Virus genome (UHGV): UHGV-1635749
Reading direction: 5' to 3' (one strand)
Length of the DNA: 15,654 nt
From: a virus
Shown here: positions 1-5,138 of the stretch, in pieces
How the letters are laid out: the number at the start of each line of letters is the position of its first letter
Numbering within the stretch: position 1 is the first letter of the stretch
Position numbers and translations under genes: made by a program
The notes under the pieces: model-generated
Told to the model about the DNA's origin: nothing
Databases searched by the model: none
What the model saw: only the letters and a program-made list of their open reading frames with translations

Positions 1-187
1 AGCTTCCAGACCACCAGTTCATCCCCCGGCTGCATAGTGGCGATCAGCCGTTTTAGAACCGGCCGATTCGATTTCCTCCCGCTGGCATGCTCTTCAAAAA
101 TTTTCTCACAACCCGCTGACTTGAGCGCCGTTAGTTGCAATTCAGTGTCCTGGTGGTTTGTTGATACTCGGGCATAACCGTAAATCA
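1..187 (-). CDS. Serine recombinase, DNA invertase family (Gin/Pin/Hin/Cin-like), N-terminal 62 aa; gene continues beyond left edge
   Basis: Reverse complement from ATG (plus 185-187) translates MIYGYARVSTNHQDTELQLTALKSAGCEKIFEEHASGRKSNRPVLKRLIATMQPGDELVVWKL. This matches the serine recombinase N-terminal catalytic region (GY-RVST with active-site Ser, GC--IF-E--SG, RP-L--L, GD-LVVWKL). AGGAGA lies 6 nt upstream of the ATG. Not in the ORF track because no stop lies inside the window. Confidence 0.8.
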
Positions 188-192
188 TGGGA

Positions 193-219
193 TTTCTCCT
201 GTTATGAAAACAGGAGAAA
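193..219. promoter_or_regulatory. 27-nt near-perfect palindrome (11-bp arms) overlapping the invertase Shine-Dalgarno sequence
   Basis: tttctcctgtt-atgaa-aacaggagaaa: positions 193-203 are the exact reverse complement of 209-219. The AGGAGA ribosome-binding site of the invertase sits in one arm. Candidate operator or RBS-sequestering hairpin. Confidence 0.35.
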
Positions 220-263
220 CGGCGAAGTATCGCCAGATTTTTGGGGGTTATAAAAAAGGTTCC

Positions 264-449
264 TTACTGAGTAGACACATCTGCCGGCTTAATGAATTTT
301 TTCCCATCATATAACCAGCCGATACCGACACCTCCTTCAGCCAGTACAGCAATGCCATCCGTTGGCTTCCACTCGGATTCCCCATCCCACACGGCGATAT
401 TGACGACAACACCGTTATTTACAACCGCATAAATTTTGTTTTCATTCAT
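264..449 (-). CDS. Small hypothetical protein (61 aa from ATG at 449) in the position usually held by a tail fiber assembly gene
   Basis: ORF MNENKIYAVVNNGVVVNIAVWDGESEWKPTDGIAVLAEGGVGIGWLYDGKKFIKPADVSTQ. Its ATG (447-449) overlaps the tail fiber stop TAA (449-451) by 1 nt. The track's longer form starts at GTG 464. No family recognised. Confidence 0.45.
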   Translation of the reverse strand: MNENKIYAVVNNGVVVNIAVWDGESEWKPTDGIAVLAEGGVGIGWLYDGKKFIKPADVSTQ

Positions 450-1714
450 TACTGATACTCCCACACAATAATATAACCCTGATAACCGTCATTACCTCTG
501 GACGTTGCACTGTTTGCCGGACTGTATTTACCCGTTCCGCCTTTTCCATAAACGCCAATCATGGTCGAAACTGTGCTTTCGAGTCCGACTGCCATATCAT
601 CACCAAGACCAAAAGCTGCACATGACGGGGAGTGAGAAGCAGAGTGAAACAGAAGTCCGGCCCCTGTTGGTGGTGAAGCTTCGGCGGCACTGCCACCTGA
701 GAACGGAGGAACCTGCTGACGTTGTTGTGAGCCTTTGCCGCCCGGACAAACGAGTAATGAACCAAAACTTGTCTGACCGCCATCTCCACCAGAACCACCA
801 GGCCCCGCACCGCCCACACCACCGGCGCCAATCGTTACAGGTACAGATTCAGGAATATCCTGATAATAAAAAGCCTTTCCGTAGGCTCCAGGAGAACCAG
901 CTGCGCTGATGCCACAGTTATTTGAGGCTGTTGCTGATAAATTGCCACTGGCACCACCACCGCCAACGGCTTCCACTATAATTTTCGTTACACCGGGTGA
1001 TTTGTAGTACATCCCAGAAGTACCGAATACCTGCACTCCAAGTAAACGTCCTGAGCCGTCCCCCAGTGTCAGATACTGAAGCATATCAGGAACATTTTCT
1101 TTACTGATAAATTGACGGCCAGCGAGCGTCAGCGCTGATACTGCCGGAACATTTTTACCAGAAAAAAACAGAACCTGATCAGCGTCAGTTTGCGGCCCCA
1201 GCGTGGAAAGTTTTGTCAGCGTATCGCTGAGGGGTTGTTTGTTTTTTAGCGCTTCTATAAGACCAAGGTATGTGAGAATGTCAGCAATAGTCTTTTTCCC
1301 AATAATGTCACGGCCAACAGAAGTTAAATCAGTCTGTGATGCTGTATCAGTTCCAGTGAAATACGGGAGTTTATTTGCACCGGTTGCGAGCCCAGCCAAT
1401 GCCGTCAGCGTGGCATCAAGCGCCTGGAAATCTTTCCCGAAAGCGGTCCCCATTTTGGATATAAACCCGTTCAGGTCTCCATCATCAAGCACATCCAGCC
1501 CGCTTTTGTTGGCGGTGTACTGCGCCAACGCTGCCGCGATAAAGCTGGCTTGCCGAATAGCTTTGTTGACCTGTGCGCTGGATGCTTTACCTGCCGTAAA
1601 CCCTGAAAGCAGAGCCGGAAGTGCTTCCCAGTCAGCTTGTGAGGTGACGTTAGCGTTCGGATCAAGCGCGAAAGGTTTAAAGTTGTTTATTGCCATTAGA
1701 GTATTGTCCCCCAT
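449..1714 (-). CDS. Tail fiber protein (421 aa; alternative ATG at 1696 gives 415 aa)
   Basis: Residues about 95-153 (nt about 1256-1432), ATLTALAGLATGANKLPYFTGTDTASQTDLTSVGRDIIGKKT...YLGL, match the conserved segment I recall in P2 gpH / Mu S / P1 S-type tail fibers. Gly-rich C-terminal half. Follows the gpI-like gene as in P2 (V-W-J-I-H). The ATG at 1696 overlaps the upstream stop by 1 nt. Confidence 0.85.
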   Translation of the reverse strand: MGDNTLMAINNFKPFALDPNANVTSQADWEALPALLSGFTAGKASSAQVNKAIRQASFIAAALAQYTANKSGLDVLDDGDLNGFISKMGTAFGKDFQALDATLTALAGLATGANKLPYFTGTDTASQTDLTSVGRDIIGKKTIADILTYLGLIEALKNKQPLSDTLTKLSTLGPQTDADQVLFFSGKNVPAVSALTLAGRQFISKENVPDMLQYLTLGDGSGRLLGVQVFGTSGMYYKSPGVTKIIVEAVGGGGASGNLSATASNNCGISAAGSPGAYGKAFYYQDIPESVPVTIGAGGVGGAGPGGSGGDGGQTSFGSLLVCPGGKGSQQRQQVPPFSGGSAAEASPPTGAGLLFHSASHSPSCAAFGLGDDMAVGLESTVSTMIGVYGKGGTGKYSPANSATSRGNDGYQGYIIVWEYQ

Positions 1715-2376
1715 GCTCCAACATCGAACCCGCCGATGTATTCGTTATCCATATCAAACCCAAAGAATTTAGAGCCTTCTGACGGTGTTTCTACCGAAGG
1801 CGTTTCAACATCACCGGCCCATACGCCAGCTGATTTAACGGTGAGATAGCCATGTTTGATAGCGGCGATCAGTTCGAGAGACACATCAGAAATATCAGTT
1901 TCAGGGAAAACCCAGACCGAAATCGTCATGTCCTGGTTGTCGACGATCTGCATCCTCAGGCCTGAGCCTGCGGTAGCAGCGTCAAGGATGGGAGGCAGAG
2001 AGTCGTTCCGACCGTCCCAGTTGTTGATAGCGATTTTCGCTTTCAGAATGATGCGGTACGTCTCATCGCTTAGCGTCGTATAGCCAGAATCAGGATCATA
2101 TGGCCCTTGCCAGATGCCCTGGTCATACCCAAGCCCGTCAGTGTCCCAGCTGAAATAAACTCCGCTAATTGGCTGGCTGACTATGCGACTGCGTCCGATC
2201 CACAGACCGAGGATGTCGAGCTGTACACCGACAGCAGTATCGATATCGAAGGCTGTTACAAGCCCTGACATAGTGCTGGACACATCAATCAGCGGGCGGG
2301 TGCTCAGATCTATATGGTCAAAAAAGAGTGGCTTGGTAGCGTGGTAGTTAGTGATCAGTTCGGTGTATTTGCTCAT
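1696..2376 (-). CDS. Baseplate/tail protein, P2 gpI-like (226 aa)
   Basis: Assigned by size and synteny (between the J-like gene and the tail fiber). Its start overlaps the J-like stop (2373-2376). Confidence 0.55.
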   Translation of the reverse strand: MSKYTELITNYHATKPLFFDHIDLSTRPLIDVSSTMSGLVTAFDIDTAVGVQLDILGLWIGRSRIVSQPISGVYFSWDTDGLGYDQGIWQGPYDPDSGYTTLSDETYRIILKAKIAINNWDGRNDSLPPILDAATAGSGLRMQIVDNQDMTISVWVFPETDISDVSLELIAAIKHGYLTVKSAGVWAGDVETPSVETPSEGSKFFGFDMDNEYIGGFDVGAWGTIL

Positions 2377-3572
2377 GAGGTCACCGTGATACTGATATTC
2401 GCGGTGCTACAGGACGCTGAAGCATCATAGGCAATATCAATGTTTGATGCCGATACGCTGCCAGACGACTTACCGATCAGCAGGTCGGTAATATCGTAAT
2501 AGCGGGCATTTCCGCCGCTCACAACGCCGAGGTTTGCCGGGGAATAAATACGGCTCAGCAGAACGTCGTCGCCAATTGTTAGGCCATTTATATAATCGGC
2601 AACAGCCTGTTTAATCTGCTCGCCGATTTGAGAGGTATAGCCGGTAAAAACTTTCAGGGTAATGGCTACGAAAATTGGCACATCGGTAGAGCGCGAAAAA
2701 CTGATGACGTGAGGATTACCATAAGTATCCGGCACTGTGACAGAAGTTTTACCGTAAGTTGCGGTTCCCTGCCCTTTATTCCCCCTGATGGTCTGGGCTA
2801 TCTCGGTAACATCCCCTCCATCGACGATGGCGGAAATAGAGTGTGGCGGCAGCCCGTTGCTGTCGGTTGCCCCAGTGTCGTTCTCATATAGTTTGTGACG
2901 TGTCACGCCAGCAACATTAGCGATAGCACCGTCGACACCTTCAAACGGTGTGATCGATGGTAGCGCGACGCTTTGCCCCTGCCGAATGCGCAGCTCTGCG
3001 TCGGTTTCGGCTGGTGAACCGACAGTAGCCGCAACTGGATTGGTTACCGACACCCAACCTCGGGTCGGGGTGTTGATAGTGGTAATAGTCCCGGCCAGCG
3101 CCGCAACCGAACCGCTATTCGCACATGTGGCCGTCACCAGCACAGTACCATCAACGCCGATCGCCACACTCGCTGGAAAATTCCAGATAATGCCGTTTTT
3201 ATCCCGTGCGGAGCCATTCGTGATAGTCGTGCCTGCCGTACCGGTTAACAGAAGGTCAGCAGTAGAGTTTGTCGCTACTTTTCGCGTGATCCCGTTAATT
3301 TTCACATTGTTGCTAAGCGCTGCGGCCTGCGCTGTCGTCGGTGAAAAAGAGTTGTAGATCTCGATAGCGGTATTGTTAGCGTCATGCACCGCAAGAGCCA
3401 CCAGCGCGACCATTTGCCCATCTTTGCTGTCTGGTTCGAGGTAGGCATCACTACCGTAAATCTGCCTGAAATAGCTGGTCAGTGTATCGAGGATTGTCTG
3501 GTAATCAGGCGCACTAATCCCCTGGGCGGTTACCGTTGCCGATAGCCCCAGCGTGTCGAGGTTCAAAGCCAT
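2373..3572 (-). CDS. Baseplate J-like protein (399 aa)
   Basis: Position directly after the gpW-like gene and before the gpI-like gene. Size is compatible with Baseplate_J-family wedge proteins. Assigned by synteny only. Confidence 0.65.
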   Translation of the reverse strand: MALNLDTLGLSATVTAQGISAPDYQTILDTLTSYFRQIYGSDAYLEPDSKDGQMVALVALAVHDANNTAIEIYNSFSPTTAQAAALSNNVKINGITRKVATNSTADLLLTGTAGTTITNGSARDKNGIIWNFPASVAIGVDGTVLVTATCANSGSVAALAGTITTINTPTRGWVSVTNPVAATVGSPAETDAELRIRQGQSVALPSITPFEGVDGAIANVAGVTRHKLYENDTGATDSNGLPPHSISAIVDGGDVTEIAQTIRGNKGQGTATYGKTSVTVPDTYGNPHVISFSRSTDVPIFVAITLKVFTGYTSQIGEQIKQAVADYINGLTIGDDVLLSRIYSPANLGVVSGGNARYYDITDLLIGKSSGSVSASNIDIAYDASASCSTANISITVTS

Positions 3573-4675: not shown

Positions 4676-4702
4676 ATAAAAAAACCCGCTCGGTGGCGGG
4701 TT
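4676..4702 (-). terminator. Rho-independent terminator closing the AT-rich cassette
   Basis: On the minus strand: AACCCGC-CACCGA-GCGGGTT (7-bp stem, 5 GC pairs) followed by UUUUUAUGGGGUUUUU. The stem overlaps the stop codon of the 145-aa ORF; the U-tract runs straight into the spike ATG. Confidence 0.55.
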
Positions 4703-5138
4703 ATAATTTTGCTTCTGGATAACATCTACAGCGACCATCAGGACAACACTTTCCCTCTCCGGGATGACCACTTTTAGGCGGCTTACTCCACGAAAATGTT
4801 TTCCCATTATTTTTAGCGCATTCTGCACACTCGTCACCATCCTCGCAGGAGCGCCAAATATAACGTTTAATACCCAAGCGAGATTGCTTTATCCTCTCTG
4901 CCTCAGAGTGACGACGGCTATTTTCGGCGAGGTGTTCAGCATAGCGCGCGTTATCCTTCTCAATTTCTTCTTTACTTCGCCGCTTCCCATTTGCTGGCTT
5001 TGATTTTTGGTAAGCAACCCGTTTATTTCGATTGTATGATTTAATAATTTCGTCTTCATTTCTACGCTTTTTAAATTTTAAATATTTAACAAATGCAAAA
5101 ACAATTACGAATAAAATAATAATATATGCAGGTTCCAT
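4701..5138 (-). CDS. Membrane-anchored, basic, Cys-rich hypothetical protein (145 aa) in the AT-rich cassette
   Basis: N-terminal hydrophobic helix AYIIILFVIVFAFVKYL followed by KFKKRR (positive-inside). Lys/Arg/Glu-rich middle. C-terminal CEDGDECAEC...GKTF...HPGEGKCCPDGRCRC putative metal-binding motif. ATG overlaps the upstream stop (TAATG at 5136-5140). Strongly AT-rich codons. Confidence 0.55.
   Translation of the reverse strand: MEPAYIIILFVIVFAFVKYLKFKKRRNEDEIIKSYNRNKRVAYQKSKPANGKRRSKEEIEKDNARYAEHLAENSRRHSEAERIKQSRLGIKRYIWRSCEDGDECAECAKNNGKTFSWSKPPKSGHPGEGKCCPDGRCRCYPEAKL

Follow-up and report, generated by a model that had tools for sequence, protein, structure and literature searches.

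The classical tail-fibre assembly (Tfa) proteins, Mu U, P2 G and lambda Tfa, are about 175–194 aa long, and the structure of the Mu protein is 5YVQ. For the small protein described here, the closest characterised relative is gp25 of cyanophage Pam3 (7YPX chain a), a 162 aa chaperone whose C-terminal four-helix domain forms its trimeric core. In Pam3 the chaperone and the fibre gp24 make a 3:3 complex with a trimeric C-terminal helical bundle. It was shown that the gp25 N-domain (residues 1–55) binds the TNF-like and Gly-rich domains of gp24, that the C-terminal helical domain trimerises the chaperone, that the N-terminal helices of the fibre trimerise without the chaperone and that gp25 is not detected in virions (PMC9608196). 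The N-domain is described as binding the distal fibre in two-domain Tfa proteins (Caudo_TAP; Pam3 gp25, Mu U), and trimerisation by the C-domain is central to Tfa function in the published model, including its account of North et al. (2019) (PMC9608196). The closest relatives in sequence are proteins of ~136 aa of the Caudo_TAP family, which follow Gly_rich_2 fibres in E. coli and Salmonella (e.g., P0299, "tail fiber assembly protein") and have a conserved C-terminal domain (...WxxYRxxLxxVDxSxAPDIxWP).

The window, by which we mean the whole stretch of DNA that was analysed, is one complete metagenome contig of 15,654 bp (ENA ERZ650794 NODE_1595); the remaining prophage lies beyond its ends. 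Pfam scans and gene calls reveal, on its minus strand, the structural genes of a Pam3/E217/KPP10-like myophage. The genes run from the cement and major capsid proteins through a DUF3383 sheath, the tube, a tail assembly chaperone and a tape measure with an SLT domain to a Dit-like protein, a Pam3_gp18 plug, the hub, the spike and the sheath initiator. These are followed by two wedge proteins recognised by Pfam, one Baseplate J-like (2373–3572, minus strand) and one of the DUF2612/Phage_Wedge1 type (1696–2376, minus strand), a homolog of Pam3 gp23, and then by the fibre. An ORF of 145 aa between the hub and spike genes (4701–5138, minus strand), called as a gene on the contig, is an unusual insertion for a baseplate operon; it has an N-terminal transmembrane-like helix, a Cys-rich C-terminus and a weak similarity to Phage_Mu_F (E=3e-5, below threshold).

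The tail fibre gene (449–1714, minus strand, stop codon at 449–451; phrog_11303 tail fiber, E=2e-86) encodes 421 aa from its first ATG, or 415 aa from the ATG at 1696 that the gene callers favour. Its constant N-terminal part (aa 1 to ~150; 1267–1714, minus strand) shares 98% identity with the fibres found in sister E. coli prophages, where the tips are different. The receptor-binding tip (aa 215–421; 452–1072, minus strand) is glycine-rich, has homologs with PF21722 (Gly_rich_2) and is predicted to adopt a TNF-like and Gly-rich fold. Directly 3′ of the fibre gene and co-oriented with it, as in the Caudo_TAP proteins, lies an ORF of 61 codons (264–449, minus strand; ATG at 449–447, TAA stop at 266–264). 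The fibre stop TAA (451–449) shares one base with the ORF's ATG, which gives the junction TAATG, and a GGGAG Shine–Dalgarno sequence stands 8 nt upstream of this ATG. The overlap of stop and start that had been noticed in an earlier note on this DNA is therefore confirmed. After the ORF there are 75 nt before the start, at 188, of a Pin/Gin-type serine DNA invertase gene, of which the first 62 codons are present (1–188, minus strand) before the contig end cuts it. The slot thus lacks the chaperone gene of ~175 aa that the same note had expected there, as it had said.

The length of the ORF alone is not significant, since the window holds 114 ORFs of at least 40 aa, and its coding status is judged by conservation. 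Residues 5–57 match positions 3–59 of the 63 in phrog_14370 (E=5.2e-19), a family without an assigned function, and all database copies of the short ORF are labelled hypothetical. Homologs with 56–93% identity form 26 clusters (at 90% identity) in E. coli and Citrobacter, and an exhaustive profile search finds the domain in 1273 representative clusters at E≤1e-3. From 20 loci we obtained 12 distinct alleles, all 12 intact, with dN/dS of 0.14–0.40 against the window allele at dS of up to ~2. By these comparisons the ORF is a real, conserved gene under purifying selection, and the drift of non-coding DNA that the earlier note had allowed for is not what the alleles show. An upstream GTG start at 464, which would give 66 aa, was considered and rejected: alignments with the homologs begin at the ATG, and in relatives the junction reads TGATG or TAATG. 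Pfam and NCBIfam scans of the ORF return no family (for Pfam at E≤1), and a back-translated pattern scan of genome contigs gave no confirmed relative. Searches of isolated phages by tblastn with the ORF and with P0028 found no match; more distant family members used as queries did reach Bcep1, Kp4865-2 and other isolated phages.

The kinship of the small protein is visible in a sister E. coli prophage (EH09-18-41, locus L001). Its baseplate genes are 98% identical to those of the window and its fibre has the same N-terminus, followed by another glycine-rich tip (PF21722) and then by a Caudo_TAP (PF02413) protein of 137 aa, with residues 2–57 of which the ORF product shares 41% identity (BLASTP, E=1e-12). 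A comparison with relatives that keep a full assembly gene had been proposed in the earlier note: sister prophages have full Tfa genes at the position of the ORF. The best 150 profile matches fall into two size classes, about 80 of 54–79 aa and about 40 of 120–146 aa, so that short forms make up about half of these clusters. Among the 58 longer matches examined, 23 belong to PF02413 and 7 carry DUF4376, and none of 81 short relatives matches any Pfam family, PF02413 included. In the profile search for tail fibre assembly domains that had been suggested earlier, the Pfam Caudo_TAP model does not match the ORF and the family profile does reach Caudo_TAP proteins.

In sequence space the short forms are completely mixed with the long ones. 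A long form is the nearest neighbour of 27 of the 82 short forms, compared with 28±5 expected at random, and this interleaving therefore suggests that the C-domain was lost or gained repeatedly in the family. The ~136 aa Caudo_TAP proteins share with the window protein a homologous N-domain (profile E=4e-24), the position after the fibre and the type of client tip; the window protein differs in having no C-terminal domain and in falling below the Pfam threshold. Because these two defining features, the profile match and the C-domain, fail, we do not place it in the Caudo_TAP family; we call it a variant without the C-domain, whose mode of action is probably that of a Tfa N-domain. In comparison with Mu U, P2 G and lambda Tfa it is about a third as long and lacks the C-domain, and its N-domain is of another subtype, one that tracks the glycine-rich fibre tip.

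Some further features of the small-ORF alleles can be noted. After ...KFIKP, the alleles in L002, L005, L006, L007 and L019 carry three types of C-terminal tail (ADVSTQ/EDKTAQ; SLKQDDVILTEGRAS/SLKPDVVTPQDELVS; ASKPDAVIPPGEQAS), and these are shuffled independently of the domain subtype. The 68 aa alleles have the tail PQDELVS, similar to SHDELV in the linker and at the beginning of the helix in the two-domain Tfa; this is a hint at an origin of the short form by truncation. In P0053, a fibre-like protein of 680 aa, profile positions 30–60 are matched six times through the repeat "NGTGISWSYNDGANTLTP", so that the half of the chaperone domain with GIGWxYDGxxF is similar to a repeat motif of tail fibres.

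After the N-domain the window protein has 6 more residues. An HMM built for the C-domain has no match in the six frames of the window, nor does one appear in Pfam scans of the window ORFs; this model is of the enterobacterial type and also missed the C-domain of Pam3 gp25, so its reach is limited and a very divergent trimerisation partner could escape it. Frameshifting or read-through into a hidden C-domain was also considered and set aside, as no window frame gives a C-domain signal. An assembly gene of ~175 aa is absent from the window. In two P2-like prophages (L032 and L034) the 61 aa gene occupies precisely the place of gene G in apparently complete late regions (V W J I H – ORF – FI FII ... 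D ogr), with no other Tfa gene visible in these late-gene regions. The whole genome of the isolated Burkholderia phage Bcep1, which carries the same domain, likewise gives no match to the enterobacterial-type model, the one that misses gp25. A full-length assembly gene elsewhere, which would have spoken against the minimal chaperone of the earlier note, was thus found neither in the window nor in these relatives, within the reach of that model.

Structural models point in the same direction as the sequence comparisons. The AlphaFold model of the ORF product (pLDDT 83) has five strands and a short helix and shows the beta-sandwich of the gp25 fold, with a Foldseek E of only 0.05 for the small domain. 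An alignment of the short forms matches gp25 residues 3–62 at the weak level of E=5e-5 (hhalign), and the A1 and A2 profiles, run against PDB sequences, gave chance matches only and did not reach gp25. The model of the fibre tip (aa 215–421, pLDDT 89) has as its best PDB match 7ypx_A, which is the Pam3 fibre gp24 (E=3e-7). BLASTP of the fibre against gp24 gives no match, and the kinship is visible at fold level only. PDB sequence matches of the fibre to scFv antibodies were rejected as spurious, being due to glycine linkers. The next structural matches of the tip are tail-tip proteins of mycobacteriophage Bxb1 (9d93) and the TNF-like/glycine-rich domain of the receptor kinases ALK/LTK from human and invertebrates; the same link in fold between phages and animals was noted for the TNF-like/glycine-rich domain by the authors of the Pam3 structure (PMC9608196). 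The ORF product and the fibre tip therefore map onto the two chains of one solved chaperone–client complex, with the ORF representing the client-binding half only. In this it differs from gp25, as the window protein extends no more than a few residues past the beta-sandwich and has nothing that corresponds to the trimeric helical bundle.

The short ORF is strictly tied to a single type of fibre tip, and at every locus examined it stands directly after a glycine-rich one. In the 18 IMG/VR loci, without exception, and also in L002, L028, L032 and L034, it directly follows a fibre ending in ...GYI[IL]VWEYQ, and the fibres before it contain ~23% glycine in their last 200 residues. The more distant L022 and phage Kp4865-2 have the same short domain after glycine-rich tips with other endings. 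By their fibre N-termini and adjoining baseplate genes the carriers span at least four tail types; most of them are prophages or metagenome contigs, and the invertase is absent in most. The two-domain relatives of 136 aa show the same preference: whether the backbone is Mu-like, P2-like or another, they invariably come after Gly_rich_2 fibres. In one invertible segment the two Tfa proteins have the C-domain in common, and only the one beside the glycine-rich tip has an N-domain of the ORF type (E=4e-24 vs 0.08). The type of N-domain therefore tracks the type of tip, as would be expected of a client-recognition domain. In a further locus with a Pam3-like backbone (L033, 8948–10001), the fibre gene upstream of an intact 61 aa ORF is broken by several stop codons, so that the fibre is decaying and the small gene is still open.

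The case of Bcep1 brings the short form into an isolated phage. Its glycine-rich fibre gp33 (472 aa) is followed by gp32, a protein of 59 aa with the domain of the ORF, and then by a holin. Both gp32 and its counterpart gp29 of BcepNY3, also 59 aa, are without an assigned function and resemble the window protein in the stand-alone domain, in size and in the position after a glycine-rich fibre. Bcep1 is also a small myophage with a DUF2612-type wedge neighbour, as in the window. It differs in host and lineage, the similarity is at profile level only, and the next gene is a holin and not an invertase.

Taken together, we consider it probable that the ORF is the last tail-operon gene of a Pam3/E217-like myophage and encodes a "mini-Tfa", which consists of the N-terminal beta-sandwich of ~55 residues and acts on the fibre tip without a C-domain. 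The minimal chaperone that the earlier note had offered as one possibility thus gains support from homology, predicted fold and context, namely an N-domain of the Caudo_TAP/Pam3 gp25 type and the strict link to the tip. Its other suggestion, that the fibre folds without a separate chaperone, finds none. Most likely the protein serves the fibre tip as a monomeric chaperone or as a cap. In the mechanism that we propose, the small protein would be made by translational coupling with the fibre through the TAATG junction. Single copies would then attach laterally to the TNF-like/glycine-rich tip of every fibre subunit as it is made, like the gp25 "tentacles" in 7YPX, and would shield the tip and keep it foldable, with trimer formation being driven by the fibre's own N-terminal part. 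Afterwards the protein could be released, as gp25 is, or be kept on the tip as a cap, as reported for Mu Tfa. In this mechanism, binding, chaperone activity and stoichiometry are inferred. A more far-reaching statement, that the C-terminal trimerisation domain is dispensable for glycine-rich (TNF-like/polyglycine) tips and that the beta-sandwich of ~55 residues alone serves as monomeric chaperone or cap, we put forward tentatively, as slightly less likely than not. Because the published model makes trimerisation by the C-domain central to Tfa function, a protein that lacks this domain might do no more than bind or cap the tip, with no role in folding.

One alternative explanation, which seems to us rather unlikely, develops this last point: the protein would be a structural accessory that stays on the side of the mature tip, where it aids receptor binding or masks the tip until release. 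Mu Tfa was reported to remain on the fibre and to help LPS binding, and chaperones of Alteromonas phages were proposed as transient caps (PMC8174754, PMC10579305). How a lone binding domain would drive oligomerisation is not obvious, and a permanent partner would account equally well for the strict co-inheritance with the tip. Yet the homologous Pam3 chaperone was not found in virions (PMC9608196), and this explanation overlaps with the main one, as both require binding to the tip.

Another hypothesis concerns the history of the locus, whose ORF the earlier note had described as a possible remnant of a lost invertible segment. The invertase that adjoins the ORF (PF00239, E=4e-17; phrog_125) is 98.5% identical to that of phage HK225, and two crossover-like sites can be recognised around the tip and the small ORF. 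The first lies within the fibre gene (1253–1278, minus strand; TTCTCACATACC TT GGTCTTATAGAA, core at 1265–1266), where it marks the boundary between the constant and the variable part of the fibre; L001 has a consensus site at the same position and L006 has the inner half of the site on a different fibre. The second, proximal to the invertase (248–273, plus strand; TTATAAAAAAGG TT CCTTACTGAGTA), has an outer half and core identical to L001 and HK225, and its inner half extends over the small ORF's stop codon, which stands 2 nt from the crossover core. The cores are inverted (TT/AA), and the inner half-sites match the consensus GGTTTGGGAGAA at only 8/12 and 6/12 positions. Between the sites there is a single cassette, with nothing between the ORF stop (264) and the crossover site (248–261) and no alternative tip and chaperone cassette on the opposite strand of the window locus. 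Two-cassette invertible fibre segments beside a Pin-like invertase are found in L001, L005, L037/L038 and Kp4865-2. The predicted inversion junction ACATACCTTCCTTACTGAG had one exact match each in the metagenome and genome collections, with nothing else in common with the window; this search has little power, as ~4 chance matches are expected for a 19-mer in 596 Gb and the exact un-inverted junction is also absent from IMG/VR. As read from the sequence, inversion would join the constant part of the fibre to ...PY-stop and so give an OFF state. The locus has the appearance of an invertible segment that became fixed with a single cassette and worn sites, and for the locus the description as a remnant holds.

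For the ORF itself it does not hold. If the ORF were a decaying and functionless remnant of a two-domain Tfa, truncated as the segment collapsed to one cassette, then its stop codon so near to a crossover core, the SHDELV-like ending of the 68 aa alleles and the full Tfa genes in the sister prophages would all fit. Against this stand the 12 intact alleles with low dN/dS over considerable divergence, the presence of the short form on several backbones without an invertase, in apparently complete P2-like late regions and in Bcep1, and the fact that short forms are about as frequent as all others among the best 150 clusters and interleaved with the long ones. We regard this explanation as very unlikely.

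The crossover-like sites also bear on how the cassette moves. The boundaries of the cassette made of tip and small ORF coincide with the 2-bp cores of crossover-like sites (248–273 and 1253–1278 in the window; L006, L028, L032–L034). The 61 aa alleles of the window, L028 and L032–L034 end in ...CAGTAAGG|AA|C and are followed by differing outer sequences that resemble half-sites, even in P2-like prophages that have no invertase there. As this same boundary recurs in unrelated contexts, it suggests that the cassette has been exchanged between phages at crossover cores. On the other side of the core, positions 1–261 of the window, which hold the beginning of the invertase gene and the region upstream of it, share 98.5% identity with the siphophage HK225 and 95% with phi80 pinL, and the similarity ends exactly at the crossover core. 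An invertase module is therefore common to lambdoid siphophages and to the Pam3-like myophage of the window. In L001 the invertase abuts yciI, which is the attachment locus of HK225/phi80.

RNA folding of the region between the small ORF and the invertase (193–235, minus strand) gives a terminator-like hairpin (235–220) followed by a perfect 11-bp palindrome (219–193) that holds the invertase Shine–Dalgarno sequence AGGAGA. Over 180–270 (minus strand) the structure, in which this sequence is buried, has an MFE of −26.4 kcal/mol (z = −5.4). The same palindrome is annotated as IR3 in phi80, and it may control expression of the invertase. An unrelated function for the small ORF, which would then stand after the fibre by chance and be a moron, a factor in superinfection or lysogenic conversion, or a regulator of the neighbouring invertase, could be read from this neighbourhood and from its hypothetical label in every database, including the function-less phrog_14370, but is most improbable given its homology in sequence and fold to fibre-chaperone N-domains, its translational coupling to the fibre and its linkage to the tip and not to the invertase.

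A literature search found no paper that describes a stand-alone form of the Tfa N-domain. We do not regard the small protein as a new system; it is a natural test of the current model of tail-fibre chaperones. In the structural model based on Mu and Pam3, choice of the client is the task of the chaperone's N-domain and assembly of the trimer that of its C-domain, and a natural, conserved form without the C-domain allows a direct test of which half of the chaperone is essential. Tail-fibre chaperones are needed in order to produce and re-engineer the receptor-binding proteins of phages and tailocins, and if the ORF product works it would be a very small helper gene for the expression of glycine-rich fibre tips. 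Hundreds of "hypothetical" genes of 55–75 aa that follow Gly_rich_2 fibres could be named. If the C-domain is indeed dispensable for glycine-rich tips, the protein would be the smallest dedicated phage fibre chaperone, and its family would be a widespread one that has gone unannotated, with many interconversions between the short and the long form.
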